Part shown: positions 2,558-58,506 of the stretch, in pieces
Layout of the letters: each line of letters starts with the position of its first letter
Position numbering within the stretch: the first letter of the stretch is position 1
From: an uncultured Mycoplasma sp.
GTDB taxonomy: Bacteria > Bacillota_I > Bacilli_A > RF39 > UBA660
DNA length: 64,000 nucleotides
Direction: 5' to 3'
Assembly (NCBI GenBank): GCA_947646115.1
Contig: CANSFH010000002.1
Coordinates: forward strand, 27,806-91,805
Notes under the pieces: generated by a model
Told to the model about the DNA's origin: nothing
The model's database searches: none
What the model saw: only the letters and a program-made list of their open reading frames with translations
Position numbers and translations under genes: made by a program

Positions 2558-3073
2558 TTGAAATCCACAGGTGTAGTAAGAAGAATAGATGAATTAGGAA
2601 GAATTGTAATTCCTAAAGAAATAAGAAGAAATCTAGGAATTCGTGATGGAGAAAACGTCGAAATATTTACAGAATATGATAGTATAATATTAAAAAAATA
2701 TAATCGTATGGAAAAAACTAGCTATTTAGCTAATATGTTATGTGAAATAGTATATAATGAATTTAATTATAAAATAATGATTACCGATCGAGAAAAAATT
2801 ATAGCCTCATCTGGAGTAGACCAAAACGTAAACAATAAAAACCTTTTAAAAGAAGAACTAAATTTAATTGAAAATCGAGAAACAATAACTAAAAATGATT
2901 ATATATTAAATTTAGAAGACATTCAAATAAAAGGCAGTTTTGTCTTTATTCCAATTATATCTTTAAATGATAGCATAGGCCTCGTAATAATGTATAGTCC
3001 CACTAGACTATCAAATGAATCAGCAATCGGTAAATTCATTTCTAGTATTTTTTCTCGTAAGTTAGATATTTAA
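2558..3073 (+). CDS. spoVT: Stage V sporulation protein T (AbrB-type N-domain plus GAF-like domain)
   Basis: The N-terminus (M)KSTGVVRRIDELGRIVIPKEIRRNLGIRDGENVEIF closely parallels B. subtilis SpoVT (MKATGIVRRIDDLGRVVIPKEIRR...). It starts with TTG and is about 171 aa. Confidence 0.8.
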   Translation: MKSTGVVRRIDELGRIVIPKEIRRNLGIRDGENVEIFTEYDSIILKKYNRMEKTSYLANMLCEIVYNEFNYKIMITDREKIIASSGVDQNVNNKNLLKEELNLIENRETITKNDYILNLEDIQIKGSFVFIPIISLNDSIGLVIMYSPTRLSNESAIGKFISSIFSRKLDI

Positions 3074-3194
3074 AAATATAATATGTACATTAATACATAT
3101 TTTTTTAATGATAAATTTATAAGAAATCTTAAAAATTAAGTTCTTGACTAGATAATGAACATATAATATAATAAAAATATCTTAAATGTTGAAG

Positions 3195-3385
3195 GAATGA
3201 GTACATATAATTTATTTTAAAGAAAGTTCGTGGTAGATGCAAACGAATAATAAATAATATGGAAGATGACTCTGGAGTTTAAACGGCAACTCTCCGTTAT
3301 CGAGTTTGAGAGCATGAAAAAAATCATGAATTAAGGTGGTACCGCGGAATATAATTCGTCCTTAATTTATGGTTTTTATTTGTTT
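3195..3385 (+). promoter_or_regulatory. T-box riboswitch leader, probably Met-specific, with promoter TTGACT-N17-TATAAT at 3144..3172
   Basis: Conserved T-box sequence AATTAAGGTGGTACCGCGG at 3334..3352. A competing terminator (aattaagg...ccttaatt plus T-run) lies just before the RBS of the HAD-metG operon. Confidence 0.75.
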
Positions 3386-3400
3386 TAAAGGAGAATATTT

Positions 3401-4021
3401 ATGAAAAAAATAAAAAGAATAATCTTCGATTTAGATGATACCCTAATTCCATGGAAAAAAGAATATAGTGCAGGCTTTAAAAAAGCACTTAAAGATTTTA
3501 ATTTAGATTATGATAATACTGATGCCGATTTAGTTGCGTACTATGAATCGATTTACCCTAATTATAATTATGAAGCTTTATTAAAAACTTTTAATGAATT
3601 TACTGGTCTAAATGCCTCTATAGATTTTATCCAAACTTGGCAAAATTATTTAGGTGAAATGGCTGAACCAGATAATGAAATAATTGAAGTTTTAGAATAT
3701 TTAAGCAAGAAATATGATTTAGTAGTATTAACTAACTGGTTTAGAGATTCCCAAGCGAAAAGATTAGCTAAAGCGCGAATGCGTGACTATTTTAGTGCCG
3801 TGTATGGCGCTGATAATTATAAAAAGCCATCAATAGAAAGTTTTAAAGAGGCAATTGGCGATTTAGAACCTAGCGAATGTATAATGATAGGTGACAATTA
3901 TAAAGAAGATATAGAAGGCGCATTAAATTGTGGACTTAAAGCTATTTATTTAACTAATAGGGAAGGAGAATTTGCAGCTCCAACTATTAAAAGCTTAAAA
4001 GAATTAAAAGAAATTTTATAA
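3401..4021 (+). CDS. HAD-superfamily hydrolase
   Basis: Motif I IIFDLDDTL (DxDxT). It is the first gene of the T-box-controlled operon. Confidence 0.75.
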   Translation: MKKIKRIIFDLDDTLIPWKKEYSAGFKKALKDFNLDYDNTDADLVAYYESIYPNYNYEALLKTFNEFTGLNASIDFIQTWQNYLGEMAEPDNEIIEVLEYLSKKYDLVVLTNWFRDSQAKRLAKARMRDYFSAVYGADNYKKPSIESFKEAIGDLEPSECIMIGDNYKEDIEGALNCGLKAIYLTNREGEFAAPTIKSLKELKEIL

Positions 4022-4042: not shown

Positions 4043-5572
4043 ATGAATAAAAAATATTATGTATCTACTCCAATATATTATCCAAGTGCAGAATTTCATA
4101 TTGGTCATTGCTATACAACAATTATAGCTGATGCTCTAGCGAGATATAAAAGATTAACTGGTTATGATGTATACTATCAAACAGGAACAGATGAACATGG
4201 AGAGAAAATTGAAAAGAAAGCTGCATCCGCAGGTGTAACTCCAAAAGAATACGTTGATAAAATAATAGAAGACGCTAAAGATTTATGGCAATCTTTAAAT
4301 ATATCATATGATTTCTTTATGCGTACAACAGACGATTACCATGAAGCTTCTGTTCAAAAAATATTTAAAAAATTATATGAACAAGGAGATATTTATAAAG
4401 GCTCATATGAAGGACTATATTGTATCCCATGTGAATCCTTTTGGACAGAAACTCAAGCCGTGGACGGAAAATGTCCAGATTGTGGGCGAGAAGTTAAAAC
4501 AGTAAGTGAAGAAGCCTATTTCTTCAAACTATCTAAATATCAAGATCGTTTAGTTAAATTTTATAATGAACACCCAGATTTTATATTACCACTATCACGT
4601 AAAAATGAAATGCTAAATAACTTCATTAATCCAGGGCTAGAAGATTTATGTGTATCTCGTACTAGTTTTAAATGGGGAATACCAGTTGATTTTGACCCAG
4701 ACCACGTCGTTTATGTTTGGGTAGATGCTTTATCAAACTATATAACTACTTTAGGTTATCCCGATGAAAATAACGAACTATTTACAAAATACTGGCCAGC
4801 AGACCTTCACATTGTAGGTAAAGAAATTGTTAGATTCCATACTATTATTTGGCCTTGTTTATTAATGGCTCTTGATTTACCATTGCCACACCAAGTGTTT
4901 GGACATGGATGGTTAAAAATAGATGGTGGTAAAATCTCTAAAAGTTTAGGAAACTATAAAGACCCACGTGTATATATTAATGCTTATGGCGTTGATGCAG
5001 TAAGATATTATGCTCTTCGCGAAGTTCCCTTTGGACATGATGGTAATTTTTCTGAAGAAGCTCTAATATCTCGTACTAATGCTGATTTAGTAAATACTTT
5101 AGGCAATCTTGTTAACAGAACTATTAGTATGTCCCATAAATATTTTGATGGCATAGTTACTAATCCAAAAGTTGAAGAAGAGCTTGATAAAGATTTAATA
5201 ACTAATATTTTAGCTTTAAAAGATATCGTTGAAGAAAAAATGAACGAATTAAAAGTTAATGAAGCAATTGAAGAAATCATGGATGTATTAAGAAAGTGTA
5301 ATAAATACATTGATGACACAACACCATGGACTTTAGCTAAAGATGAAACAAAAAAAGAGCGCTTACAAACAATTCTATATAATCTTTTAGAAAGTATCCG
5401 TATTTGTACAATTCTTTTAACTCCATTTATTCCTGGAACTTGTGACAAAATATTAGCTAATTTAAATACTAAAGAAACATCTTATGATTCTATAAAAACA
5501 TTTGGTTTATTAGAAGAAGGTCTTAAACTAAATAATCCAGAAATCATATATAGTCGTATTGAAACTAAATAA
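4043..5572 (+). CDS. metG: Methionine--tRNA ligase, short form
   Basis: HIGH (HIGHCYT) and KMSKS (KISKS) motifs plus a CPDCG zinc knuckle. 509 aa, with no C-terminal tRNA-binding extension. Confidence 0.95.
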   Translation: MNKKYYVSTPIYYPSAEFHIGHCYTTIIADALARYKRLTGYDVYYQTGTDEHGEKIEKKAASAGVTPKEYVDKIIEDAKDLWQSLNISYDFFMRTTDDYHEASVQKIFKKLYEQGDIYKGSYEGLYCIPCESFWTETQAVDGKCPDCGREVKTVSEEAYFFKLSKYQDRLVKFYNEHPDFILPLSRKNEMLNNFINPGLEDLCVSRTSFKWGIPVDFDPDHVVYVWVDALSNYITTLGYPDENNELFTKYWPADLHIVGKEIVRFHTIIWPCLLMALDLPLPHQVFGHGWLKIDGGKISKSLGNYKDPRVYINAYGVDAVRYYALREVPFGHDGNFSEEALISRTNADLVNTLGNLVNRTISMSHKYFDGIVTNPKVEEELDKDLITNILALKDIVEEKMNELKVNEAIEEIMDVLRKCNKYIDDTTPWTLAKDETKKERLQTILYNLLESIRICTILLTPFIPGTCDKILANLNTKETSYDSIKTFGLLEEGLKLNNPEIIYSRIETK

Positions 5573-8725: not shown

Positions 8726-9229
8726 TTAGAACTTTTTTAAAATATTTTTCACGTAAGACTGATACTTAATATCACTAATATCTTCTTCGTTATTATCTAA
8801 AAGACACAGCGGAGGAAAAAGAACACACCAAAAATTATTTCCCATTCCTTCACCCAAAGTAATTACTAATGATTCATAATCTCCAGCTTTATACATAACT
8901 CCTTTATAATTTTTGGTTGGAAAATAGTTTAAACCGTAATTTATATTATAAGGAACATTATATTCTTTAACCAATTTATCTATTGCATCCATATTAGAAC
9001 TAATTACATCTCTAACATCATTAGTACTATTAGCATCTTTAATCAAATTATATATTTCTTTTTCAATTTTATCTTTAATTAATAACTTATTTTGTTGATC
9101 TTGCACAGTATTACTATTAGCTATAACCCTAAATCTTATTGCATTACTAGGAATAATTATATCTTCCTCTTTTTTATTAAAAATAACTACTAAACTTACT
9201 ATAAATAATATAATAATAACTTTTTTCAA
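8726..9229 (-). CDS. spoIIR: Stage II sporulation protein R
   Basis: Signal peptide, IRFRVIANSN, and the signature GEGMGNNFWCVLFPPLC (the G.G.NWWCV.FPPLC motif of SpoIIR). Confidence 0.7.
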   Translation of the reverse strand: MKKVIIILFIVSLVVIFNKKEEDIIIPSNAIRFRVIANSNTVQDQQNKLLIKDKIEKEIYNLIKDANSTNDVRDVISSNMDAIDKLVKEYNVPYNINYGLNYFPTKNYKGVMYKAGDYESLVITLGEGMGNNFWCVLFPPLCLLDNNEEDISDIKYQSYVKNILKKF

Positions 9230-9454: not shown

Positions 9455-10708
9455 ATGAAACAAATGATAATTGAAGGAAATAATATTCTTTCTGGAGATA
9501 TTCATATTGGCGGAGCTAAAAATAGTGCGGTAGCACTTATACCAGCTTCTATTATGGCTTATGGGGCCTCAACGATTAAAAATGTTCCAAATATTTCTGA
9601 TCGTGATGCCTTAATTGATATTTTAAAATTATTAAATTGTGATATAAAATTAACTAAAGATGAACTAATTATAGATACAACAGATTTAAAAAATGTAAAC
9701 ATTGATTGTAGCTATTCTAGCAAACTTAGAGCATCTTATTATTTTATGGGAGCTCTTTTAGGCCGTGATAAATATGTTGAAATATGTTTGCCTGGCGGCT
9801 GTAACATTGGTACAAGACCTATAGATATTCATATTGATGGTTTTAAGGCATTAGGAGCCAAAGTAACAATAAAAGATAATAAATATATTTTAGAAGCAGA
9901 CAAATTAATTGGTACTGATATTAATCTTCGCTTTAAAAGTGTTGGAGCAACTATTAATATAATGCTTGCAAGTGTTCTAGCAGAAGGAGTAACTACCATT
10001 CACAATGCCGCAGAAGAAATAGAAATAATTAATATTGCAGAATTTTTAAATGCTATGGGAGCTAAAATAACAGGAGCGGGAACAGCAACTATTACGATAA
10101 CAGGAGTGGAATCTTTATATGGCGCTGAAATTTCGGTATTACCAGACCGTATAGAAGCAGGAACGTATATTATTCTTGGAGCTCTTTGTGGTCAAGAGTT
10201 GTGTATAAAAGATATTAATCCTCATCATTTAGAATCTTTAATTAACACTTTAAAAAACATAGGTGTTGATATCAAAGTTAATTCTAATAATATTCTAATA
10301 AATAAAACAGAAAATCTCCGACCAGTTAATATAAAAACTGAAGTATATCCTGGTTTTCCGACCGATATAGGCCAACCTATGAGCGTATTATTAACTCAAA
10401 TATCAGGATCTTCAGAATTTGAAGAAACTATATGGGAAAATAGAATGGGGCATATTCCATCTTTAACGAAAATGGGCGCAAATATCAAAGTAAATAAAAA
10501 TAAAGCAACCATTATTGGTCCTACCGCATTAAAAGGAGCAGAAGTTCTAGCTACAGATTTAAGAGGGGGAGCATCCCTAGTTTTAGCAGGATTAATTGCG
10601 GATGGAACAACCATTATAACTGATGTTGAACATATTTTAAGAGGATACGAAAATATTGTTTTAAAGCTTAAAAATGTAGGTGCTAAAATAGAAATAAGAG
10701 AAATATAG
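9455..10708 (+). CDS. murA: UDP-N-acetylglucosamine 1-carboxyvinyltransferase
   Basis: 417 aa with the typical MurA N-terminus (GGAKNSAVALIPA) and a CNIG active-site cysteine region. Lying next to rpmE resembles B. subtilis murAB. Confidence 0.95.
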   Translation: MKQMIIEGNNILSGDIHIGGAKNSAVALIPASIMAYGASTIKNVPNISDRDALIDILKLLNCDIKLTKDELIIDTTDLKNVNIDCSYSSKLRASYYFMGALLGRDKYVEICLPGGCNIGTRPIDIHIDGFKALGAKVTIKDNKYILEADKLIGTDINLRFKSVGATINIMLASVLAEGVTTIHNAAEEIEIINIAEFLNAMGAKITGAGTATITITGVESLYGAEISVLPDRIEAGTYIILGALCGQELCIKDINPHHLESLINTLKNIGVDIKVNSNNILINKTENLRPVNIKTEVYPGFPTDIGQPMSVLLTQISGSSEFEETIWENRMGHIPSLTKMGANIKVNKNKATIIGPTALKGAEVLATDLRGGASLVLAGLIADGTTIITDVEHILRGYENIVLKLKNVGAKIEIREI

Positions 10709-12414: not shown

Positions 12415-12527
12415 AATAAAATCACCAAACCTATTATAACTTACTATTTAAAATATATATAGTAAATTATTAATTTTTTCTTTAAAAATAACTAATAATT
12501 TGGTATTATAAAGCAGTGGTGAAACAT

Positions 12528-13130
12528 ATGGAAGAACTATTTCGTATCAATGGTAAGACAATTTATAATATAAACACTACCATTTTATATACTAGTGATT
12601 TTAATTTTAATGCTGATGCTATTATATATTTAAATAACGGCTGTCTTTTATTTGAAAAAAATGGTCGCTATAATATAAATGACATTTCTGATGAACTATT
12701 AGACATATTTGAATGTTTACCATTAAAAAATAAACAAAATTTAACTAAAATAGATGAAATTAAAATAAATATTCTTGGAAACTTATTAAGTCCCAAAAAA
12801 GTCTTTGTTTTCTTAAATATTTTCACATATTTAGATAATAAATTTAAAAATAAATTAATTAGTTTTCTTGCTAGGGCCAATAAAATAGTTATAAACTATA
12901 CCACTGATATTGAAGAAGTTTTATTATTTCCCTATTTAATAATCAGTCAAAAAAAACAAATAATTATTGAAGGAAATACAGAGGAAGTTTTAAAAGAAGA
13001 AAGAATAATTAAAAAATTAGGTTTTAATCTTCCATTTATTGTGGAATTATCAAGTGGATTAAAATACTATGGATTAGTTGATAAAGTTTATTTTAATAAT
13101 GAAAGCTTGGTGGAAGATTTATGGAAGTAG
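12528..13130 (+). CDS. Degenerate EcfA-like ABC ATPase (predicted inactive)
   Basis: ABC-ATPase-like layout, but Walker A is absent (ADAIIYLNNGCLLF), the signature is LSPKK instead of LSGGQ, and Walker B is YLD instead of DE. It occupies the ecfA1 position upstream of truA. Confidence 0.45.
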   Translation: MEELFRINGKTIYNINTTILYTSDFNFNADAIIYLNNGCLLFEKNGRYNINDISDELLDIFECLPLKNKQNLTKIDEIKINILGNLLSPKKVFVFLNIFTYLDNKFKNKLISFLARANKIVINYTTDIEEVLLFPYLIISQKKQIIIEGNTEEVLKEERIIKKLGFNLPFIVELSSGLKYYGLVDKVYFNNESLVEDLWK

Positions 13131-13738
13131 CAAGAATCCTCGAAAATAAAGCGCCCAATAAAATTTATGGAATAATGGGAAATATAGATATTACTGCTAA
13201 TAATGTAAATTATTCTCTTGTAACAGAGTTTAAATTTAGTGGTTCTGTTATGAATTATTTAAATAGTCCCAAAGCTAAAAATGCTCTTAAAATGGTAATG
13301 CTAACTGAAAATTATTTAGAAAAAAAAGTTGAAGATTTAAGCGAAACTGAAATAAAAAAAATAATTCTTGCGAATGCCTTAATTAAAAACAAAGAATATA
13401 TTGTATTAGATTACTTTGAAAAAGGAATAACTTACAAAGAACGAGAAAGTTTTAAAAGATTATTTCGCAAATTATCAAATGAATATCAAAAAAGCATTAT
13501 ACTATTTACCAATGATATAACTTTCCTTTGGGATATAGCTGATGAAATAATATATGTGGATAACAAAGAAGTTATTAACACTTTTACTAAAGATAAATAT
13601 TTTGAATTAGCTAAATTAGTAGATCAACCAGAAATAGTAAAATTTATCGAATTAATGCGCTCTAAAAATATTAATGTTGAAAACTATAAAAATGTTTTAG
13701 ATTTACTTAAAGCAATTTATAGAATTAAAGGTGAGTAA
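13121..13738 (+). CDS. Degenerate EcfA-like ABC ATPase (predicted inactive)
   Basis: Aligns by eye to the ABC signature/Walker B/H-loop block, but with LSETE for LSGGQ, LDYFE for ILDEPT, FTND for the H-loop and GIMGNIDIT for Walker A. It overlaps the previous gene by 10 nt. Confidence 0.5.
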   Translation: MEVARILENKAPNKIYGIMGNIDITANNVNYSLVTEFKFSGSVMNYLNSPKAKNALKMVMLTENYLEKKVEDLSETEIKKIILANALIKNKEYIVLDYFEKGITYKERESFKRLFRKLSNEYQKSIILFTNDITFLWDIADEIIYVDNKEVINTFTKDKYFELAKLVDQPEIVKFIELMRSKNINVENYKNVLDLLKAIYRIKGE

Positions 13739-13740
13739 CA

Positions 13741-14475
13741 ATGCATTATTTAATAAGTATAAAGTATGATGGTTCTAAATTTTATGGTTTTCAACGTTTA
13801 AAAGAAAAAGAATCAGTTCAAAAAAAATTAGAGGAAGCCTTAACTATCATTAATAAAAAAGAAGTTACTATAAAAGGTGCTGGAAGAACTGACCGTGGAG
13901 TTCATGCATTAGATCAAAAAGCAACTTTTGATTTAGATATAAATATTGCTCCTGTAAGATTAAAAAATGCGCTAAATAGTTTAGTTAAGCCTTATATTTA
14001 TATTACTGATGTTAAAGTGGTACATGATACATTTCATGCTAGATTTGATACATTAAAAAAAGAATATATTTATAAAATAAATTTAGGTGAATATGATCCT
14101 TTAAAAAAAGATTACTATTATGAGCCAGAATTCAAACTAAATATTAAAGAAATGAAAAAATGTGCTAAACTATTTATTGGCATTCATAACTTTAAAAATT
14201 TTGTATCAGGTACAAGAACAAATTATGATTGCATTATTTATAACATTAAGTTTAAGAAGAAAAAAAATATTCTTGAAATAAAATTTATTGGCAAAAGTTT
14301 TTATCGATATATGGTAAGAAATTTAGTAGGAGCCATGCTAGATGTTAGTATCAAAAGAATAAGTTTAGATGATATTAAAAATGCTTTAAATAGTCCTGAA
14401 AAGGAAAAAGCATTTAGTACTGCGGAAGCTCAAGGCTTATACTTAAACAAAATCTATTATAAAGGAGAAAAATAA
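13741..14475 (+). CDS. truA: tRNA pseudouridine(38-40) synthase
   Basis: Catalytic motif GAGRTDRGVHA. 244 aa, in the conserved position upstream of rplM-rpsI. Confidence 0.9.
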   Translation: MHYLISIKYDGSKFYGFQRLKEKESVQKKLEEALTIINKKEVTIKGAGRTDRGVHALDQKATFDLDINIAPVRLKNALNSLVKPYIYITDVKVVHDTFHARFDTLKKEYIYKINLGEYDPLKKDYYYEPEFKLNIKEMKKCAKLFIGIHNFKNFVSGTRTNYDCIIYNIKFKKKKNILEIKFIGKSFYRYMVRNLVGAMLDVSIKRISLDDIKNALNSPEKEKAFSTAEAQGLYLNKIYYKGEK

Positions 14476-14477
14476 AT

Positions 14478-14792
14478 ATGGATAACAACAATATACTAGT
14501 AGCGATGTTTGTCCAAAATTATGATAAAATGACTCAAGCTGTAGCAGGAAATATTAATTGGTTATATCAAATAGCATGCATAAATTGTACTTTAAGTTCC
14601 TTAATAGATGCCAAAGATCATTTAGATGAAATAAGTAAGTTTTATATATATAATACTCTTACTATTGCCATGTCTTTCGAAAGAAAATATGCTGGTTCTA
14701 GAATAGCTGAAGTAGAATCATTAAAAGCATATTTGGAAACATTAAAAAAATTATCAATTAAACGTGAAGACTTTAAAAGGTCATCAAGATAG
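14478..14792 (+). CDS. Hypothetical protein
   Basis: 104 aa. An AGGAG RBS lies 10 nt upstream and overlaps the end of truA. Confidence 0.45.
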   Translation: MDNNNILVAMFVQNYDKMTQAVAGNINWLYQIACINCTLSSLIDAKDHLDEISKFYIYNTLTIAMSFERKYAGSRIAEVESLKAYLETLKKLSIKREDFKRSSR

Positions 14793-14822: not shown

Positions 14823-15405
14823 ATAATTATATTTCGAAATGGCACATTATTCTAGTCAATACATATTACGAAGACGAATGTAAAAGATCGTTACAGAGCA
14901 CATCTATGAAACTTCTGGTGCTTGCTTCTTGCGCCCAGCTTGGGGTGAGTGCTGGAAATGAAGATTTCTTGGGCGACCATAATGGCATATGGCAAACGCC
15001 CCAGGTTATCGCGGAGACCTAACTTTGTGGAATAAATAATTCTACGAACTAGGCTTGAACCTACTTGTGGCGAAAGTTATGAGTAGTGTAGCTTGGCTTG
15101 AGTGGGAAACGGGGATAAATGACAGCTAAATCTGGCGTGTACATGTTACAGATTTAGTATTGCTTTTTGAAACGTTTACTGCAAAAGAGCATAAGTAATG
15201 GGGGTATTGTCGAGGAAAACTCCTAGAGTGCATATTAGAGTAAGATTGCAGTGTGTACTAAGTGGCAATCAGGTAATAAGATAGGTAACTACTTATTTAT
15301 TCCTTTAAATGGGAACGGCCTACGTGGTAACATTTAGGTAGGGATAAGGGAAATCCAACCTGACCTTAAGTCGCAAAGTTTATTATTTTAATAGCCATTT
15401 CAAAA
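14823..15405 (+). ncRNA. Large structured non-coding RNA, candidate OLE-like
   Basis: About 580 nt with no ORF in any frame and roughly 45% GC against a roughly 27% background. Perfect local stems are visible (cttgggg/ccccagg near 14935..14995 and agctaaatctg/cagatttagt near 15120..15160). It has its own promoter and is followed by a 4-TM membrane protein gene. Confidence 0.5.
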
Positions 15406-15421
15406 TTAAATAGGTAATAAT

Positions 15422-16012
15422 ATGAAAGATAAAAAGAATAAAGAAAAATATAATAAAAAAGCAAGCAAACAAAATAAGAATGTAAATATGAAAGCAGATT
15501 ATAAATGGATAGTGACAATAACACTGACAGCTTTTATAATCACTTTTGTTATGAGTTCATTTTCTGAAATTGCTCTAAAAGATATAAGTTTAATTTTTGG
15601 TATCTTAATAGTAGTAATTTTTATAGCTTTAGGAATAATTTTTGATATGATTGGTGTTTCTGTAACTGTCGCTGATAAAAAAGTATTTCACTCTATGGCT
15701 GCCAAAAAAGTAAGTGGCGCACGAGTAGCTTTAAAACTTATTGAAAACAATTCTAAAGTTTCCAGTTTTTGTAATGATGTTATTGGCGATATATGTGGTA
15801 TTCTATCTGGTACTGCCGCATCTACCATTGCTATATTATTAGCTAACGAATTAAAAATAAACTTATTTTTAGTCACATTAATTATTACTAGTTTAATCGC
15901 TGCCTTTACAATTGGAGGTAAAGCTTTAGGTAAAAGCATAGCAATAAATCATTCTAATAATATTTTATATAAGTTTGCTAAAGTTTTAAAAATATTTAGT
16001 AAGGAAAAATAA
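15422..16012 (+). CDS. Small 4-TM membrane protein, possibly OapA-like
   Basis: 196 aa (about 21 kDa) with a lysine-rich N-terminus and four hydrophobic helices. It lies immediately after the ncRNA candidate with no intervening terminator. Confidence 0.5.
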   Translation: MKDKKNKEKYNKKASKQNKNVNMKADYKWIVTITLTAFIITFVMSSFSEIALKDISLIFGILIVVIFIALGIIFDMIGVSVTVADKKVFHSMAAKKVSGARVALKLIENNSKVSSFCNDVIGDICGILSGTAASTIAILLANELKINLFLVTLIITSLIAAFTIGGKALGKSIAINHSNNILYKFAKVLKIFSKEK

Positions 16013-17072: not shown

Positions 17073-17108
17073 TCAATGTTTCAAAGTCCGATATATTCGG
17101 GCTTTTTT
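17073..17108 (+). terminator. Rho-independent terminator after rpsI
   Basis: Hairpin gtccga-tatat-tcgggc followed by TTTTTTT. Confidence 0.6.
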
Positions 17109-31014: not shown

Positions 31015-31929
31015 ATGGAAAGTATAAGCATGTTAGAAAGATATGGCGAAGATTTAACCGCAAAAAATTATATTACTGACCCAGCAATAGGTCGTGATGA
31101 CGAAATAAAACAAATGATTTTAGCTCTTCTTACCCCTGAAAAAAGTGCATTATTAGTAGGCAAACCAGGTATTGGTAAAACTGCAATTGTAGAAGGACTT
31201 GCTTATCGTATTATCCAAGGTTATGTACCAGATGTATTATTAAATTATCAAATTATAAAAATAAATATAACTAGCCTTATTGGAAATACTATAATAAGTG
31301 GTGAAACAGAGAATAGAGTTGATTTATTAGTTCGTGAACTTAATACTAAAGATAATGTCATAGTATTTATTGATGAAACTCATCTTTTAATAAACAAAGA
31401 TGGTGGTATGGATTTTGCTAATATGCTAAAGGCAGGATTAGACCGTGGTACCATAAAAATGATAGGTGCAACTACTACTGATGAATATGAACAATATATT
31501 TTAAGAGATAGAGCATTTTTAAGACGTTTTCAAAAAATTGAAGTTGCTGAAAGTGATAAAGAAACAACTGTCGCAATCCTTATGGGAACTCTTCCCAAAA
31601 TAGAAGATAAAATTGGTGTAAAATGTGAGTATACAAATTTCATTAAAGAACGTATTATGCGATTTATTGTTGATATGACAGATGAATATAAAAGAGTATA
31701 CGAAATAGCCTCACGTTATCCCGATATATGTTTAACAATTGTATCTAATGCATATACTTTTGCATTATATGACAATAATCGTACTGTAACCATAAAACAT
31801 TTTTATAAAGCAATATGTAACGCTAAAAATATTTATGATGATGCTAGATTAAAAGAAATAGAAAGATTTAAAATAGAATTTGCTGATATTTTAAGAGAGG
31901 AAGGTGTTGATTTAGATGAACGGAACTAA
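31015..31929 (+). CDS. Clp/Hsp100-like AAA+ ATPase, single module
   Basis: Walker [22 protein letters not shown] typical of ClpA/B D1 domains. Only about 300 aa. Confidence 0.55.
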
Positions 31930-32971
31930 AGTTTTTCAAATTGGCTGTGGCCGAATGAGTAAGTATATTATGAAATATGTTTACGATTTAGGAGGAACCA
32001 TCGTAGGAGCAGTAGATGTGGATCCCGATAAATTAGGAGAGGATATTGGGACAATTATAGGAACTGAACCTAAAAATATTTTTATATTTGATACCTCAAA
32101 ATTGGAATATTTATTAAATGATACAAAGCCAGATATAGCAGTAATTACTACATTAAGTTATTTAAATGATGTAGAAGATACTATTAGAACTTGTGTTAGA
32201 TGTGGAGTAAATGTAATTACTACTAGTGAAGAATGCTTTTTTGCTTCAAATAGTAATCCCACTTTATTTCACGAATTAGACGTTTTAGCTGCAGCTAATA
32301 AAGTAACTATAACAGGCTGTGGATATCAAGATGTTTTTTGGGGAAATCTTATTACTGTATTAGCAGGATCTATTCATAATATTACCAAAATTAAGGGAAG
32401 TTCTTCTTATAATGTTGAAGATTATGGTATAGCTCTTGCAGAAGCTCATGGAGCAGGTTTAACATTTGATGAGTTTGAGAAAAAAATAGGAATTACCGAT
32501 AATATTAGTGATATAGTACGTGAAAAACTGATTATGGAAAGACAGTTTTCTCCTTCATATATGTGGAATGCCGTAGGGTGGATTGCTGATAAAATGAAGC
32601 TAACACCTATAAGATTAACTCAAAAATGTATTCCTGAAACGTCAGATATCGATTTACATAGTGAAACATTAAGTTTAGATATCGAAAAAGGAAATGCAAC
32701 TGGAATGAGTGCTATAGCAACTCTAGAAACAAAAGAAGGAATTATAATTGAAGCCGAATGTATTGGCAAAGTATATGGACCAGATGATTATGATAAAAAC
32801 GAATGGACCGTTTATGGTGAACCAGACACTACAATAACCGTGAATCGACCTGATACTGTAAGACTTACCTGTGCAAATATTGTAAACCGTATACCTGATG
32901 TTATAAAAGCTAAACCAGGATTTATTCCAACAAGCGAAATTGGAGAAAGCACTTATAAATTAAATTATTAA
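31916..32971 (+). CDS. NAD(P)-binding dehydrogenase (DapB-like or amine-dehydrogenase-like)
   Basis: N-terminal Rossmann fold [10 protein letters not shown]. 351 aa. Confidence 0.45.
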
Positions 32972-32974
32972 AAA

Positions 32975-33002
32975 CTCAAAAGAATTGAGTTTTTTATTTT
33001 AT
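32975..33002. terminator. Bidirectional terminator between convergent genes
   Basis: aactcaa-aaga-attgagtt followed by TTTTT. Confidence 0.6.
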
Positions 33003-33005
33003 GTT

Positions 33006-34865
33006 TTATATTTTAAGTTTAGTTTTTACAATTCTTTCTAAATGTTTTTGCAAAGCTTCATCACAAGCATATACATAACAACCCTTAATTCCTCTTGTAA
33101 GCAACACTCTATATGTATTTCTAATAATTTTATCAGCAAGCTTTTCATAATAAGACTTGTCTTTTTTCATTAAAACATATAATCCATACAATGACTTTTC
33201 TGTACTAGCTCGAGCTTTATAATCAGTTATTACTTTACCATTTCGATACTTTAAATCTGGTCCTATTATAACACCGATATAATCAAATTCTAACCCTTGA
33301 ACATTATGAACACATCCAACTTCATTTATAGCACTTATTCTTGTTGCAAACTGCTCCCCGTGTTTCAAATTCCAACTCATTTCAAAGTCATCAATTTTAA
33401 TATCTTTATATTGTTGATTATCAGCTTCTTTGGCATTTCTTGACCAACAAAAACCCGCTACTAACCTAGCATTATTAATAGTGTTTTTCTCTATTATTTC
33501 ATCTCTTAAATCTGTAGGAGTATCCATAACTTTAAAATCAAAATTAAAATTAACACTTCCTCTTTTATTATAAAGAATCTTATCTACGAAATCTAAATAA
33601 GAATCACTTCCATTACATCTAAATTGACTAGTAAGTTCTAGTTCCATAACATCAGCATTAAAGTATTTAGCAAAGTATTTGATATTTAAAATAGTTCCAA
33701 TATCTTTTAAAGTAATAATCTGTTTTTCATCAATAAAGAAAACCGATAATTTACTAGCATTCATAATTTCTTTAATCTGATTTTCGCCTATATTATTCCG
33801 CATGCCAGATTTTTCTGATAATCTATGAGATTCATCAACTAATAAAAAATCATATTTATTTGGATAATCCCTAAAGAAGTAACCCGAACTTTTAAATAAT
33901 TCATTTATACTGACTTCGTTCTTTCCATTTATTAATTTATTTTTATAAACTTTTCTGGGCGCCATATTTTTAGAAACATAAGCCCCCATTAAGCCTCTAG
34001 AAAGTAATTCGCCTAAAGCATTAATAGCTAAAATAGATTTACCACTCCCTGGCCCACCTTTAATTATCAAAACATTCTTTTTATTTTCAATATATGAAGC
34101 ATTTGCCTTGGATATAATTTCTTCCATAATTACTTTTTGTTCATCAAGCATAACAAACTCTTTACTTCCTTCTAGTATTCTATTAAGATGTTTAAGTAAT
34201 TTATTAGTCGGTTTAATATCGCTTTGATCAACTAGTTTTATAACTTCTAAATTATCACCATGTCTAATATTAGAATTAATTAAATCTTTTAAATAATCTT
34301 TATCATTCTTGCCAAACATTAAAACCTTTTTATAATAGGGACTATATTTTTTACTATATAAATCATCACTTAAGCTTAAATCATAATTGTGTAAATAAAC
34401 CAGAGGTACAACTTTTATCTTATAATCTTGAATGTTAATATTATAATTATTTAAAAGTTCAGCATAGCTTCCTACCTGATAAGCTGGGTGTAGCGAGTTT
34501 TTTTCTTTATCACCAATTAATGTTTTAATAACGCCATCTAAATTTTTTACTTCTTTAGCATATTCCCACTGTTTTAATTCGACTAATATAATCGTAGGTC
34601 TCATTTCCTCATTATAACCACTAATAATAAAATCTACTCTTTTACTTGTAAGTGGTATTCCATATTCAATTGTAATGCCAGCATTATCTGGTAATTCTTC
34701 TATAATGTCTTTCATAAAAGGTAAACTATTAGCCCAAGCTTTAATTTGATTTAGTTTGGTCTTTTTATTAAATTTTTCTTTATATGCGTCATATACTTTA
34801 TTACTTATAATATCTCTTTTGACATAATCTATAAACTCTTTTTTTAAACACGAAAAAACCATCAC
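33006..34865 (-). CDS. PD-(D/E)xK nuclease fused to a DUF2075-type SF1 helicase/ATPase (Schlafen-like or Nhi-like), a candidate defence protein
   Basis: N-terminal RVDFIISGY...ILVELKQW is a D...ELK restriction-endonuclease fold. Walker A GGPGSGKS. A long helicase-like C-terminal region follows. Confidence 0.65.
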   Translation of the reverse strand: MMVFSCLKKEFIDYVKRDIISNKVYDAYKEKFNKKTKLNQIKAWANSLPFMKDIIEELPDNAGITIEYGIPLTSKRVDFIISGYNEEMRPTIILVELKQWEYAKEVKNLDGVIKTLIGDKEKNSLHPAYQVGSYAELLNNYNINIQDYKIKVVPLVYLHNYDLSLSDDLYSKKYSPYYKKVLMFGKNDKDYLKDLINSNIRHGDNLEVIKLVDQSDIKPTNKLLKHLNRILEGSKEFVMLDEQKVIMEEIISKANASYIENKKNVLIIKGGPGSGKSILAINALGELLSRGLMGAYVSKNMAPRKVYKNKLINGKNEVSINELFKSSGYFFRDYPNKYDFLLVDESHRLSEKSGMRNNIGENQIKEIMNASKLSVFFIDEKQIITLKDIGTILNIKYFAKYFNADVMELELTSQFRCNGSDSYLDFVDKILYNKRGSVNFNFDFKVMDTPTDLRDEIIEKNTINNARLVAGFCWSRNAKEADNQQYKDIKIDDFEMSWNLKHGEQFATRISAINEVGCVHNVQGLEFDYIGVIIGPDLKYRNGKVITDYKARASTEKSLYGLYVLMKKDKSYYEKLADKIIRNTYRVLLTRGIKGCYVYACDEALQKHLERIVKTKLKI

Positions 34866-54364: not shown

Positions 54365-56539
54365 ATGAAAGAGATATTTAATAAATTATACAAAATCTTA
54401 ATTATAGTCATGTTATTTATATGGGGAATTATAACTTTTTCTAGTTGTTTTCATGTTTATGAAAGATTTTATAATCCTATTGCTATTTTTTTTGGTGGGT
54501 TTATTATTTTGCTAATTATCTATAATGTTTATCAATTAATAAAGAAAATAAATCCCAAATATCATGACAAAATTGCATTAGGTATGTTTCTTACAAGTTT
54601 AGTTATCATGCTATTATGGGGTCTTAATAATGAAATAATTCCAGCGTATGATTTATCTCATATAATCGCAAAAAGTGATTTACTCCTAAAAAATAACCAT
54701 CATTTTGGTCAGGAAATATATTTCTCAATTTATCCTACACAAATTCCCATAACTATATTTATATATGGAATTAAAGCAGTAGGAACTTTCTTTAACATAA
54801 CTAATCTAAATGCCTTTGTAATCATTTATAATGCTATAATGACTTCTCTAATGTTCTTATTTATATATAAAATTGTTAAGAAATTATCTAATAGTAATTT
54901 AGCTCTAATTGTTATGTTTATTACAATGTTATACCCTGACTTTTACTTATATATTCCATATTATTATACGGATATCATGGCTTTACCTTTTGGAATAATT
55001 GGTTTTTATTTATTACTGGCAGGTGATACCAAAGAAAATAAAAAAAGTTATATTTACTATTTGCTTGCTGGTATCCTTTTTGGAATAGGCTTTAAACTCC
55101 GTGTAACAACTATTATTATTCTTATTGCTTATATTATTTGTTTATTAAGAAATACTAAATTAAAATTAATTTTAAAAAAGCTTTTATTTATTTTTATAGG
55201 AATTATTTTAATCTTATTTACTTATTCTAAAGTTATATATCCATTCTTTAATATTGAAATAGATGAATCAGTTAAAGTACCACCTCTACATTGGGTAATG
55301 ATGGGAACTAATCCGGAAACTAATGGAGGATATGATGACGCTGCTATTAATTATTCTATAAATAGTCAAGATAAAAATAATGACATAAAAAAAGTTATTA
55401 AAGAGCGCATACCTAAATTAAATCCCAAATTTTATTATAATAAGCTACGTAAAGTTTGGTCAGAAGGAGACCATGATATTCAAAGAAAATATGCTCTAAC
55501 AAAATCTATGTCTGAAGTAAGAAACTATATTAGTGGTCCAATGTGTGGTATTTTAAGATACTATACTCAAATGTTAAAATTTGCAATTTATACATTATTT
55601 TTGATAAGTATAGCTAATCAACTTAAAAAGAAAAATACTTTTCAAGATAGTAAAATAGCGCCTATTATTATAAGTGTATTTGGTGGTATTCTCTTCTATT
55701 TATTATGGGAAGCATTAAGTCGTTATAGTTTTTCTTTTCTACCTCTTATAATAATTGGTACATATGCAGGAATTGATATATTTGTAAATAACTTTAATCC
55801 CAATATTTTTACTTTAAAAAATAAAACCTATAATATTAAAAAAGGCAAAAAAATCATTGGCATAATAATGATTATTGCTCTAATAGCAGGTCTTATAATT
55901 GGCACTAAATATGTAGCTAACGATAAACAAGTATTTGAATTAGAACGTAATTTACAAAAATATTCTTCAAGAACTTTTGAGCCTCTATATCACAAAACTT
56001 TAAAAGAAGTATTTAGAGTATCAAAACCATTTAACCGAATTCAATTAAGAGTATTAACTGATAATATAACTGAAAGTATAGAATATACCTATGAAATATA
56101 TAAATCTAATAATGAACTTATTTATAAAAGTACTTATGGCTTTGACCCTCAAAATGAACATATTATGCGTAAAATAACTTTATATGTTCCGACTGTAAAT
56201 GTCACAAAAGAAGAAGAATTCTATGTATTATTTTATTCTAATGAAGCGACTAAAAATAACCATATTAAATTAAATACTTATAAGTTTCAAGATAAAGTAA
56301 AAAATGACCCTGAATTTAGTCCAGAAGTTTTAGGTCCCGATTTTGATTTAAATCCTAATAGTGAAACCTATTTTAATAACAAATTATATACTGGAAATTT
56401 ATTTATCCGTGTTTTTGAAAAAGTAAAAAGACCATTTATTAAAAAAGAAAATTATATAATTATATCTCTGATAGCTGTTTTCTTTATTGGTAGTAATATT
56501 TACTTTAGCTTGATAAAAAAGGAACAAAAAAATGAATGA
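54365..56539 (+). CDS. Polytopic membrane protein with C-terminal soluble domain, putative GT-C-fold glycosyltransferase (ArnT/PMT/YfhO-like)
   Basis: 724 aa with more than 10 TM helices in the first 500 residues and a roughly 200-aa extracytoplasmic tail. The family assignment rests on topology only. Confidence 0.4.
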   Translation: MKEIFNKLYKILIIVMLFIWGIITFSSCFHVYERFYNPIAIFFGGFIILLIIYNVYQLIKKINPKYHDKIALGMFLTSLVIMLLWGLNNEIIPAYDLSHIIAKSDLLLKNNHHFGQEIYFSIYPTQIPITIFIYGIKAVGTFFNITNLNAFVIIYNAIMTSLMFLFIYKIVKKLSNSNLALIVMFITMLYPDFYLYIPYYYTDIMALPFGIIGFYLLLAGDTKENKKSYIYYLLAGILFGIGFKLRVTTIIILIAYIICLLRNTKLKLILKKLLFIFIGIILILFTYSKVIYPFFNIEIDESVKVPPLHWVMMGTNPETNGGYDDAAINYSINSQDKNNDIKKVIKERIPKLNPKFYYNKLRKVWSEGDHDIQRKYALTKSMSEVRNYISGPMCGILRYYTQMLKFAIYTLFLISIANQLKKKNTFQDSKIAPIIISVFGGILFYLLWEALSRYSFSFLPLIIIGTYAGIDIFVNNFNPNIFTLKNKTYNIKKGKKIIGIIMIIALIAGLIIGTKYVANDKQVFELERNLQKYSSRTFEPLYHKTLKEVFRVSKPFNRIQLRVLTDNITESIEYTYEIYKSNNELIYKSTYGFDPQNEHIMRKITLYVPTVNVTKEEEFYVLFYSNEATKNNHIKLNTYKFQDKVKNDPEFSPEVLGPDFDLNPNSETYFNNKLYTGNLFIRVFEKVKRPFIKKENYIIISLIAVFFIGSNIYFSLIKKEQKNE

Positions 56540-57083
56540 AAGAATAACCATAATCTCATTATTTAATGTTAAAGATTTAAAAAAAATTAATAATGTTTTA
56601 AGTTCTATAAATATTTCTCTATGTAAAGTACCTTTTGGTAAAAATATAATTAATAGAAAAGATGTTGATACCTTACCTTGGCATTTTACTTTATCAGCTG
56701 GAGACATCACTAAAGAAAATCTTGCCAAGGAAAGTTTAAAAAATATCAAATTTAATGAATTTGTCATCAGCATTAATAAATTAGAAGTTTTGCCTGGTAA
56801 AGAAAATAGTTATGTTTTGGTTTTTAACATTATACCTAATAAAGAGCTAACATTGCTTCATAAAAAGATTTATGAAATACTACCCACAAATAAGTACAAT
56901 CCTGATAATTTTATATTTCATATTACTATTCATATAAGTAAAGATTATGAAGAAATAATGAATCTAAAAAAAGAAATAGAAAGAAATTTCCAGCCATTTA
57001 AACTAGTAATTGATAAAATTGGTCTATTTCGTATATATCCAGCATCATTAGTAAGTGAGTATTCAAGTATAAAAAAAGTTTAA
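56532..57083 (+). CDS. 2H phosphoesterase superfamily protein (LigT / 2'-5' RNA ligase-like)
   Basis: Two H-x-T-x motifs (WHFTLS and FHITIH). It overlaps the end of the upstream gene. Confidence 0.6.
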   Translation: MNERITIISLFNVKDLKKINNVLSSINISLCKVPFGKNIINRKDVDTLPWHFTLSAGDITKENLAKESLKNIKFNEFVISINKLEVLPGKENSYVLVFNIIPNKELTLLHKKIYEILPTNKYNPDNFIFHITIHISKDYEEIMNLKKEIERNFQPFKLVIDKIGLFRIYPASLVSEYSSIKKV

Positions 57084-57114: not shown

Positions 57115-58506
57115 ATGGATAAATTAAGCAAATACAAATCAAAAAGAGACTTTACTAAAACTAGTGAACCTAAAGGCCAAGTTTCTAAAAATTCTAAAAA
57201 ATTACGTTTTTGTGTCCAACATCATGCTGCTCGTCGTGATCACTATGACTTTCGTTTAGAGTATAATGGAGTATTAGTTAGTTTTGCTATTCCCAAAGGA
57301 CCTAGCTATAACCCTAAAGATAAACGTTTAGCTGTTCATGTTGAAGACCATCCTTTAAGTTATCGTAATTTTGAAGGTACTATACCTAAAGGCGAATATG
57401 GTGGAGGTACAGTAATGTTATGGGATTATGGCTACTGGGAACCTCATAAAAATATGAAGGTTGATTTTAAAAAAGGACCTGTCAAATTTATTTTAAAAGG
57501 AAAAAGATTAATAGGAGAGTGGACACTAGCAAACCTATCTGATAATAATTGGCTATTAATAAAAGATCGAGATAATTTAAAAACTTTTGATAATATAAAT
57601 GATTTTGATACTAGTATTAAAACTGGAAGAACTATGACTGAAATATCCCGTAATATTAAAATTCTTAAAAAAGAAAATGATGAAATGATAATTGAAGGCA
57701 TAACCATAACTAATCCTAATAAAATTATTTACAAAAATCCTAAAGTAACAAAACTAGATATAGTTTTATATTATCAAGCTGTTGCAAAACACATGTTACC
57801 ATATTTAGAAAATAGACCAATCAGTGTAATTAGAGCGCCATCAGGAACTAGTGGAACCAAATTTTTTAAAAAACATTTAGAAAATAATAATGGCCTTGGT
57901 AAAGTTAAAATAAAAGACTTTGCTAACGAAAAAGATGATTACTACTACATTAAAAATATTGAAGGATTAATAAACGAAGTTCAAATGAATAGTTATGAAT
58001 TTCACATCTGGGGTAGCAAAGTGCCACGGCTAAAACATCCCGATATTTTAGTTTTTGATTTAGACCCCGACGAAAGTGTGAAATTAAAAAAAGTTCGTGA
58101 AGGTGTAAGAGATTTAAAAAGCATATTAGATGAATTAAACCTAGATTCTTATCTAAAAACAAGTGGTGGCAAAGGATATCATATAGTAGTTCCAATTGCT
58201 AACATCACTTTAAAAGAATATAAAGACATAGCTATGAATATTGCTAAATTAATGGAAGCTAAATGGCCTAATAAATATACAAGTAACATAAAAAAAGCAT
58301 CACGTAAAGGTAAAATATTCATTGACTATTTACGAAATTCGTTTGGTGCTACAAGTGTCGCTCCTTATTCATTACGTTTAAGAAAAAAAGCTACCATATC
58401 ACTTCCTATAGCTTGGAGTGATTTAGATAAAGTAAAACCCGATAGTTTTACCATTCGAGACTTAAATGATATATTAAAAAAGCCAAATCCCTGGCCAAAA
58501 TTTTAA
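57115..58506 (+). CDS. LigD-type 3'-phosphoesterase (PE) domain fused to an NHEJ primase-polymerase (Pol) domain, with no ligase domain
   Basis: PE motif LRFCVQHHAARRDHYDFRLE. Pol-domain motifs ILVFDLDPDE and KTSGGKGYHIVVPI. At 463 aa it is too short to carry a LIG domain. Confidence 0.7.
   Translation: MDKLSKYKSKRDFTKTSEPKGQVSKNSKKLRFCVQHHAARRDHYDFRLEYNGVLVSFAIPKGPSYNPKDKRLAVHVEDHPLSYRNFEGTIPKGEYGGGTVMLWDYGYWEPHKNMKVDFKKGPVKFILKGKRLIGEWTLANLSDNNWLLIKDRDNLKTFDNINDFDTSIKTGRTMTEISRNIKILKKENDEMIIEGITITNPNKIIYKNPKVTKLDIVLYYQAVAKHMLPYLENRPISVIRAPSGTSGTKFFKKHLENNNGLGKVKIKDFANEKDDYYYIKNIEGLINEVQMNSYEFHIWGSKVPRLKHPDILVFDLDPDESVKLKKVREGVRDLKSILDELNLDSYLKTSGGKGYHIVVPIANITLKEYKDIAMNIAKLMEAKWPNKYTSNIKKASRKGKIFIDYLRNSFGATSVAPYSLRLRKKATISLPIAWSDLDKVKPDSFTIRDLNDILKKPNPWPKF

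Follow-up and report, generated by a model that had tools for sequence, protein, structure and literature searches.

The nucleotide-binding domains (NBDs) of ATP-binding cassette (ABC) proteins are textbook motor domains. Among them are heterodimers with one degenerate nucleotide-binding site (TM287/288, TAP1/2, CFTR, Pdr5), in which an NBD is kept despite lost catalytic residues, one consensus site remains and a membrane domain is driven. Also known are cytoplasmic proteins with the ABC fold and no transporter domain, such as ABCE1 (RNase L inhibitor, RLI), the ABC-F factors and UvrA, all of them active tandem ATPases with intact motifs. The closest described system to the one reported here is the EcfA1/EcfA2 pair of the energy-coupling factor (ECF) transporters, as seen in L. 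delbrueckii ECF-FolT (PDB 5d3m and 8bms). In group II EcfA proteins, C-terminal helices contribute to dimerisation, and a Q-helix motif after the Q-loop (X-P-D/E-X-Q-hydrophobic) builds the groove for the coupling helices of EcfT (PMC6828968). This T-component-docking motif is not conserved in plant ECF-related NBDs of the ABCI11 type, and ABCI11 is full length, with all NBD domains and motifs kept (PMC6828968). Here we describe a related gene pair, psA1 and psA2, found in a 64,000-nucleotide stretch of DNA (the window) from an uncultured Mycoplasma sp. of the GTDB lineage RF39, UBA660 (assembly GCA_947646115.1, contig CANSFH010000002.1, positions 27,806 to 91,805 of the forward strand).

The pair has the same gene order as EcfA1/EcfA2, the same 10-nt overlap and the same place before truA, and the two proteins have the same RecA-like core (Walker B to H-loop strand) and C-terminal dimerisation domain. 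Unlike EcfA1 and EcfA2, they have no P-loop, catalytic Glu, H-loop His, LSGGQ signature or Q-helix, and there is no adjacent ecfT. Because only the fold and the C-terminal domain remain among the defining features, psA1 and psA2 should not, by their sequences, be annotated as ECF ATPases. The ABC heterodimers with a single degenerate site are comparable to the ecfT-bearing relatives described below as states B and C; in the psA pair, by contrast, neither site survives, the P-loops are missing altogether and no gene for a membrane partner lies nearby. By sequence, psA2 finds its best PDB match in ABCE1, but psA1 and psA2 are single, truncated and motif-less, and are nearer EcfA by profile and structure. 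The pair is like ABCI11 in the loss of the Q-helix and unlike it in truncation and motif loss. In the searchable literature we found no account of EcfA pairs that are truncated or degenerate in both members, two papers on RFN20/RF39 genomes make no mention of ECF transport, and neither Pfam nor NCBIfam has a family of its own for psA1 or psA2.

In our reading, to which we give a probability of roughly 60%, psA1 and psA2, which descend from the ATPases of group II ECF vitamin transporters, form a nucleotide-free heterodimer with a non-transport role.

The gene pair and its junctions

The window has a GC content of ~25%. An earlier note on this DNA had reported two overlapping open reading frames (ORFs) before truA, and both the 10-nt overlap and the outer limits of the pair, 12528 and 13738, are as it gave them. 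The following features define the locus (SD, Shine-Dalgarno):

12481..12509, + strand: promoter-like site before psA1 (TTTAAA, 17-nt spacer, TATTAT, TG upstream); weak
12518..12522, + strand: SD-like GGTGA, 5 nt 5' of the psA1 ATG; read from sequence
12528..13130, + strand: psA1 (ORF1), 200 amino acids; N-terminally shortened, catalytically dead EcfA1 homologue
13109..13130, + strand: translational-coupling junction psA1/psA2, with SD-like GGTGGA at 13109-13114 and the psA2 ATG at 13121
13121..13738, + strand: psA2 (ORF2), 205 amino acids; N-terminally shortened, catalytically dead EcfA2 homologue
13728-13735, + strand: SD-like site of truA, AAGGTGAG, inside the 3' end of psA2; junction read from sequence
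13741..14475, + strand: truA, TIGR00071 match (E 3.9e-53)

The ORF list starts ORF1 at a GTG at 12516, which gives a 204-residue form. We set the start at the ATG at 12528 instead, because all aligned psA1 homologues begin at the Met of this codon and GGTGA precedes it by 5 nt. The overlap of psA1 and psA2 is exactly 10 nt (13121-13130; ATGGAAGTAG), with the ATG of psA2 lying within the psA1 codons L-W-K, and the gap between the stop of psA2 and the start of truA is 2 nt. From this arrangement psA1 and psA2 are likely to be co-translated. Matches to the promoter consensus in the AT-rich region barely exceed shuffled expectation. The first terminator-like site on the strand of the pair is found at 17083-17105, 3' of rpsI.

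The pair had also been placed in the classical ecfA array, with rplQ upstream and truA-rplM-rpsI downstream. The downstream side of this assignment stands: the pair adjoins truA, and rplM-rpsI follow 2.5 kb downstream, after a 104-residue ORF, an ornate, large, extremophilic (OLE) RNA and an oapA-like gene. The upstream side does not, as rplQ is not upstream of the pair in the window; rpmE and a divergently oriented 216-residue gene are found there instead. No ORF with multiple transmembrane (TM) segments lies between psA2 and truA, in agreement with the earlier statement that no EcfT-like gene is present there. Here and below, the absence of ecfT refers to the locus plus the sequence searched (the window, 10-kb flanks and 1.27 Mb of lineage sequence).

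Homology and predicted fold

The ABC ATPase fold had been recognised by eye, and the profile and structure searches lead to the same assignment. The best NCBIfam match of psA1 is ECF_ATPase_1 (TIGR04520; E 1.8e-10, 40.7 bits, profile positions 144-269 of 269), and that of psA2 is ECF_ATPase_2 (TIGR04521; E 4.7e-15, 55.4 bits, profile positions 123-266 of 279). These scores are 6- to 8-fold under the curated equivalog cut-offs (315 bits for TIGR04520 and 330 bits for TIGR04521). Against Pfam ABC_tran, with its cut-off of 25 bits, psA2 gives a sub-threshold 14.8 bits and psA1 gives no match.

In a sequence search of the PDB, psA1 is matched with EcfA1 (8bms_A, E 5.5e-8, residues 76-204 of the 204-residue form), and the psA1 family profile finds the same chain with E 1.2e-9; the alignment reaches the last residue of L. 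delbrueckii EcfA1 (LGFNLPF...LWK). The PDB searches with psA2 return EcfA2 among other ABC proteins, and its family profile matches archaeal ABCE1/RNase L inhibitor with E 2.3e-13 versus 3.6e-8 for EcfA2. An ABCE1-like identity for psA2 was therefore considered and ruled out, although ABCE1 is the top PDB sequence match, since NCBIfam, synteny and structure all favour EcfA2; the similarity to ABCE1 is probably generic ABC resemblance combined with an LSxxE signature.

Both proteins are confidently predicted to fold compactly. The AlphaFold models, which used 74-76 homologues, have a predicted local distance difference test score (pLDDT) of 93.8 and a predicted TM-score (pTM) of 0.88 for psA1, and 91.5 and 0.85 for psA2; both models include the C-terminal helices. 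When the models are submitted to Foldseek, EcfA1 chains rank first for psA1 (8bms_A, E 1.5e-9, TMq 0.72) and EcfA2 chains rank first for psA2 (8bms_B, E 3.4e-11, TMq 0.75). Compared profile to profile, psA1 and psA2 resemble each other weakly (probability 11%), each being nearer its own canonical orthologue. psA1 and psA2 are one-to-one orthologous to EcfA1 and EcfA2.

Motif status

Relative to EcfA, both proteins are shortened at the N-terminus by about 70-80 residues. The positions equivalent to the ABC motifs are as follows, first in psA1 and then in psA2:

12741..12755, + strand: LTKID, signature equivalent of psA1, in place of LSGGQ (HMMER alignments to EcfA1)
12801..12836, + strand: Walker B strand VFVFLNI and D-loop YLD of psA1; Asp replaced by Asn, catalytic Glu by Ile
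12894..12908, + strand: NYTTD, H-loop equivalent of psA1; His replaced by Thr
12969..13127, + strand: C-terminal domain of psA1, the best-conserved part, with invariant columns EG..VLKEE.I.KKLGFNLPFIVELS.GLKYYGL....LV..LWK
13160..13183, + strand: KIYGIMGN of psA2, the beta-strand after which the Walker A P-loop would normally come
13337..13351, + strand: LSETE, signature equivalent of psA2, replacing LSGGQ (residue-level alignments)
13394..13417, + strand: YIVLDYFE, Walker B equivalent of psA2; Asp kept, catalytic Glu replaced by Tyr, PT by FE
13505..13516, + strand: FTND, H-loop equivalent of psA2; His replaced by Asn (residue-level alignments)
13700..13723, + strand: DLLKAIYR, C-terminal motif of psA2, nearly invariant and common to full-length EcfA2 relatives of the radiation

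In psA2, alignment with full-length relatives shows that ~46 residues are gone after KIYGIMGN, corresponding to the P-loop, its helix and the antiparallel beta subdomain, so that the Q-loop strand comes immediately after the strand KIYGIMG. The secondary structure of the AlphaFold model is the same in this respect: strand 15-20 is followed directly by strand 31-34, and the helix between them is absent. Y98 and F99 of the altered Walker B are invariant in the family, and the conserved C-terminal pattern can be written P.I..F......Y...DLLKAIYR. For this protein all four motif readings of the earlier note were right: the P-loop is gone, LSETE takes the place of the signature, DYFE that of Walker B, and the H-loop His is Asn.

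The P-loop is absent from psA1 as well. In the HMMER alignments, the canonical VIILDE/QSTSMLD lies opposite psA1 VFVFLNIFTYLD. The note was correct that all the motifs of this protein are lost, but two of its assignments are out of register: LSPKK, taken for the signature, is the loop preceding the Walker B strand (the signature position is LTKID), and YLD, taken for Walker B, is the D-loop. N123, Y124 and T125 are invariant in the family. The C-terminal domain is common to canonical EcfA1, as seen in the PDB alignment.

These losses extend to the homologues. Neither G-x4-GK[ST] nor LSGG occurs in any of the 240 listed homologues of psA1 and psA2, and the Q-helix motif is found in neither protein across all 93 ecfT-less loci. 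psA2 has lost the Q-helix column, and in all of these loci the helical subdomain of both proteins lacks its first part. What both retain is the stretch from the Walker B strand through the H-loop strand and, above all, the C-terminal domain. psA1 and psA2 are thus predicted to be unable to bind nucleotide in the canonical way, with loss of ATP binding and hydrolysis, and the alignments show them as lacking the groove in which EcfT would dock.

Conservation and selection

Homologue searches give at least 203 clusters for psA2 and at least 280 for psA1. Identity among the 120 best listed matches per protein ranges from 53% to 100% with essentially constant length; none of the matches listed carries a Pfam domain, and every named one is annotated 'hypothetical'. 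At ~55% identity, internal indels are all but absent from the alignments of both proteins, and dozens of columns are invariant. In JGI, ENA and Logan assemblies, 15 independent contigs encode the identical psA2 protein, and its surroundings are the same on each. Scanning one genome per GTDB species (metagenome-assembled genomes) yields 79 loci, 77 of them with psA1-psA2-truA intact, and overall there are 93 ecfT-less loci in which truA adjoins the pair.

Two clades can be distinguished. The proteins of clade 1 have ~200 and ~205 residues (for example, Mycoplasma sp. CAG:776 and Ca. Caccenecus avistercoris); those of clade 2 have ~157 and ~184 residues and are 33-45% identical to clade 1 (for example, Clostridium sp. 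CAG:609, Firmicutes bacterium CAG:460 and Ca. Onthocola). The NCBI taxonomy lists the named relatives as 'Bacilli incertae sedis'.

When the window is compared with a relative of 89% identity, the ratio of nonsynonymous to synonymous substitution rates (dN/dS, Nei-Gojobori) is 0.12 for psA1, 0.16 for psA2 and 0.06 for truA. Close pairs have values of 0.12-0.24, and the medians over 67 pairs are 0.19, 0.18 and 0.12, respectively, alike in both clades. psA1 and psA2 are under purifying selection. They combine homology to enzymes and loss of the catalytic residues with this selection, and are pseudoenzymes in that sense.

An AT-rich, reduced genome (~25% GC) in which all catalytic motifs of two genes are gone is where young pseudogenes might be expected, and neutral decay in a shrinking genome, or else an assembly artefact, would account for the motif losses. 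We give this explanation almost no weight. The 15 independent contigs with the identical protein come from several projects, orthologues are intact at 77 genome loci from two deep clades, and both genes are under purifying selection. Simple decay of the pair is refuted, and the preference of the earlier note for selection is borne out by the median dN/dS of 0.19 and 0.18 together with the 77 intact loci.

The tight coupling at both junctions, and the fact that both ORFs become progressively shorter across lineages, can also be accommodated if the ORFs are translated spacers that serve to couple truA, their protein products being irrelevant. In that case dN/dS should be near 1 and length should vary freely. 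The observed medians of 0.18-0.19, the dozens of invariant residues with no indels at ~55% identity and the confident predicted folds make this very unlikely.

Relatives and the loss of ecfT

A profile search of 1.84 billion representative proteins returns 400 matches at E <= 1e-10, to which the C-terminal motif is common. These range without a break from full-length proteins that have every motif, by way of full-length ones lacking Walker A, to truncated forms. In a metagenome scan, which gives 80 loci of full-length relatives, every locus readable at its downstream end leads to truA. The relatives can be arranged in six states according to their A1 and A2 proteins and EcfT, the latter with its Pfam CbiQ score:

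State A: A1 Walker A present; A2 Walker A present; EcfT present, CbiQ 72 bits
State B: A1 Walker A lost; A2 Walker A present; EcfT present, CbiQ 37 bits
State C: A1 Walker A present; A2 Walker A lost; EcfT present, CbiQ 57 bits
State D: A1 Walker A lost; A2 with a G-x4-GKE variant; EcfT present, CbiQ 18.5 bits
State E: A1 of 269 amino acids with only the P-loop kept; A2 of 262 amino acids, dead; EcfT absent
State F: A1 of 186-221 amino acids; A2 of 238-255 amino acids; EcfT absent

Past state F are the most reduced forms, the window type and clade 2. Along the series the CbiQ score of EcfT falls from 72 to 57, 37 and 18 bits, and then the gene is gone. EcfT is seen solely beside full-length A proteins, in 47 loci as against 93 without it. 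A state-A relative (L161) has the classical array rpoA-rplQ-...-ecfA1-ecfA2-ecfT-truA. The 10-nt overlap of A1 and A2 is present in 149 of 150 related loci, canonical ECF modules included, and is thus ancestral. The earlier note had taken it as a sign of selection; the overlap is real, but it is not independent evidence of new selection.

Neighbour-joining trees (100 bootstraps) were made from TruA alone and from TruA concatenated with the C-termini of A1 and A2. These are distance trees on short alignments, and only nodes with 100% support are used for the conclusion about losses. In both datasets, the ecfT-less state F pairs with the ecfT-bearing state B in 100/100 bootstraps, clades 1 and 2 together with state E join the ecfT-bearing state C in 100/100, and all ecfT-less lineages form a single group in 0/100. 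By these trees, ecfT has therefore been lost at least twice independently, and the A pair has been kept each time. Each time the pair was also trimmed from the N-terminus and stripped of its motifs. Because the pair has been kept under purifying selection after ecfT left the locus, it probably has a role that involves neither ATP hydrolysis nor EcfT.

Several of the intermediate forms are of interest in themselves. Modules with a single Walker A (state B, L092-L118; state C, L090, L101, L106, L110 and L135) keep the motif in A2 in some cases and in A1 in others; they look like ECF modules with a single ATP site in which the adjacent EcfT is diverging. In state D (L119-L134 and L148; for example, L123 5246..7588), the G-x4-GKE of A2 has Glu in place of Ser/Thr and the CbiQ score is below the cut-off; these may be ECF modules with little or no ATPase activity that have kept the T component. 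In state E (L142-L149, L164 and L166; for example, L144 1730..4064), truA comes directly after A2, without ecfT. The A1 protein of this state has an intact P-loop, GTGACGKT, but no longer has the signature or the H-loop His, and its catalytic Glu is gone too (DD); it may be an ATP-binding, non-hydrolysing intermediate.

Search for an ECF partner

A partner for the pair was sought outside the locus. The searches covered the window's membrane proteins (by Pfam), the 10 kb beyond each window end, and cluster representatives of the TM and ABC ORFs from the flanks of 77 genomes (by Pfam); in none of these sets was there a CbiQ-like protein, an S-component or a canonical EcfA. A hidden Markov model of EcfT built from 47 relatives has no match in 1.27 Mb of lineage sequence, and none of the 93 ecfT-less loci has a CbiQ-like ORF at the locus. 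The searches return only unrelated families: MntP, YitT, FtsEX, DUF92, RDD, TspO and an ABC exporter. Searching the database with the state C profile of EcfT, the closest one, yields only 52 clusters, and the three that were sampled all belong to full-length A1-A2-T-truA loci. EcfT clusters in the hundreds, expected if clade 1 and 2 genomes had a related copy, are not seen; as the search reaches only those relatives that have exact 5-residue words in common with the query, this negative is weak.

These results bear on the possibility that the pair still belongs to an ECF transporter. In that case a possibly very divergent EcfT from elsewhere in the genome would bind the dead A1 and A2 as a cytoplasmic scaffold, and the S-components would work by facilitated diffusion or be otherwise powered. 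State D lends this idea some substance: EcfT (CbiQ 18.5 bits) is kept there with an A1 that has lost Walker A and an A2 with G-x4-GKE, which shows that an EcfT can occur together with degenerate ATPases in certain lineages, and the ECF searches were confined to the locus, the flanks and 1.27 Mb. In all ecfT-less loci, however, both proteins have lost the Q-helix motif, which makes the docking groove for EcfT, and the first part of the helical subdomain. EcfT is always next to full-length A proteins, and neither EcfT nor an S-component is present in the 1.27 Mb. The 52 EcfT clusters are also few beside the at least 203 clusters for psA2 and 280 for psA1, as counted by the 5-residue-word search. 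We regard a surviving transporter of this kind as improbable.

Proposed role

The explanation we prefer, a nucleotide-free heterodimer outside transport, can be set out as follows. In this lineage of uncultured low-GC gut Bacilli, EcfA1 and EcfA2 have been reduced to a minimal core of ~200 residues each. psA1 and psA2 would be co-translated and then pair through their C-terminal dimerisation domains as a constitutive heterodimer without nucleotide. This pseudo-ATPase dimer would no longer power transport and would serve in a structural or regulatory capacity, with no need of ATP hydrolysis or of EcfT. Such a role was probably already a secondary function of the ancestral EcfA/EcfA'.

Some points count against this explanation. 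The relatives in state E retain the P-loop of A1 without a neighbouring ecfT, which means either that ecfT can move to another place or that ATP binding can outlast it. Another locus may encode an EcfT, whether a very divergent one or one acquired from elsewhere. We infer the heterodimer from the conserved C-terminal domains, and a literature search for an ancestral second function of EcfA/EcfA' found nothing.

The only invariant genomic associate of the pair is truA, which is translationally coupled to it and lies within a few nucleotides in the 93 ecfT-less loci. A more specific version of the preferred explanation would have the pair taken over by TruA or by translation, the dimer binding or regulating the tRNA pseudouridine synthase or acting on tRNA or ribosomes. 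It would suit the fact that truA alone always follows the pair, a few nucleotides away and translationally coupled, while the other neighbours vary, and that the best PDB match of psA2 is the ribosome-binding ABCE1/RLI, though this is probably only generic ABC similarity. It would also suit the linkage ecfA1A2T-truA-rplM-rpsI, which is ancestral. An adjacency handed down from the ancestral operon is, however, not evidence of a functional link with truA, and can be used only as a lead in the search for a partner. psA2 is, in addition, placed with EcfA2 rather than ABCE1 by the NCBIfam and structure searches. We consider the TruA version unlikely.

As for the origin of the role proposed for the psA heterodimer, a tentative and rather doubtful suggestion is that the EcfA/EcfA' of Firmicutes carry a second, transport-independent function in the C-terminal half of the dimer, and that this function alone has kept the minimal, nucleotide-free pair in several lineages of gut Bacilli where ECF transport was given up, at least two times independently. 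The second function may be linked to truA or translation.

Other features of the window

The region 3' of truA contains two further features on the + strand. A 104-residue ORF (14478..14792) starts 2 nt after truA and ends just before the OLE RNA; it matches no family in Pfam or NCBIfam, its conservation is confined to the nearest relatives (L001-L006 and L086, with a 111-residue form in L027), and its dN/dS against L086 is 0.24. The OLE RNA (RF01071, 382 bits, full length; 14823..15414) lies between truA and rplM, with a promoter-like site with an extended -10 ending at 14827. Directly 3' of it is a gene for a CNNM/OapA-like membrane protein (15422..16012). OLE RNA is also present in L007 (11398..11990) and L019 (2349..2941). 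The OLE-oapA insert occurs in only some clade 1 genomes and is not in L008, L010, L035, L041 or L057. The OLE host in this case is a reduced, host-associated gut organism of the Bacillus class, not an extremophile.

A T-box leader (3180..3366, + strand, 112 bits) precedes genes for a HAD-family hydrolase (3401..4021) and a class I aminoacyl-tRNA synthetase (4043..5572), an arrangement also seen in L007, L008, L035 and L041. Sporulation and cell-wall genes are represented by SpoVT-like, SpoIIR and MurA (2558..3073, 8726..9229 and 9455..10708), with BofA just past the window (L170 18071..18265); thus, this lineage of reduced genome still has genes for peptidoglycan synthesis and sporulation, unlike its wall-less Mycoplasmatales-like relatives. 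An AAA ATPase (31015..31929, + strand) is found ~1 kb upstream of an opposite-strand Schlafen group 3-like DNA/RNA helicase (33006..34865; PF09848, E 3.6e-89), and 31015..34865 may be a defence-type island. Finally, a 2'-5' RNA ligase/LigT-like gene (56532..57083) is followed by a LigD-type primase-polymerase gene (57115..58506), both named from precomputed Pfam annotation.

Implications

A pair with both ATP sites deleted and the gene for its membrane partner off the locus, selected across a large radiation and arisen more than once, would be a clear case of ABC pseudo-ATPases in bacteria. In practice, metabolic reconstructions of RF39/RFN20-like gut Bacilli should not count psA1 and psA2 as ECF transporters. 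The series from two sites to one, to none with EcfT and to none without EcfT lends itself to the question of how many ATP sites are required by an ECF module. The case implies that EcfA/EcfA' subunits may do more than power S-components; the second function suggested above, if true, would also explain the persistent tie of ecfA1A2T to the truA-rplM-rpsI operon.

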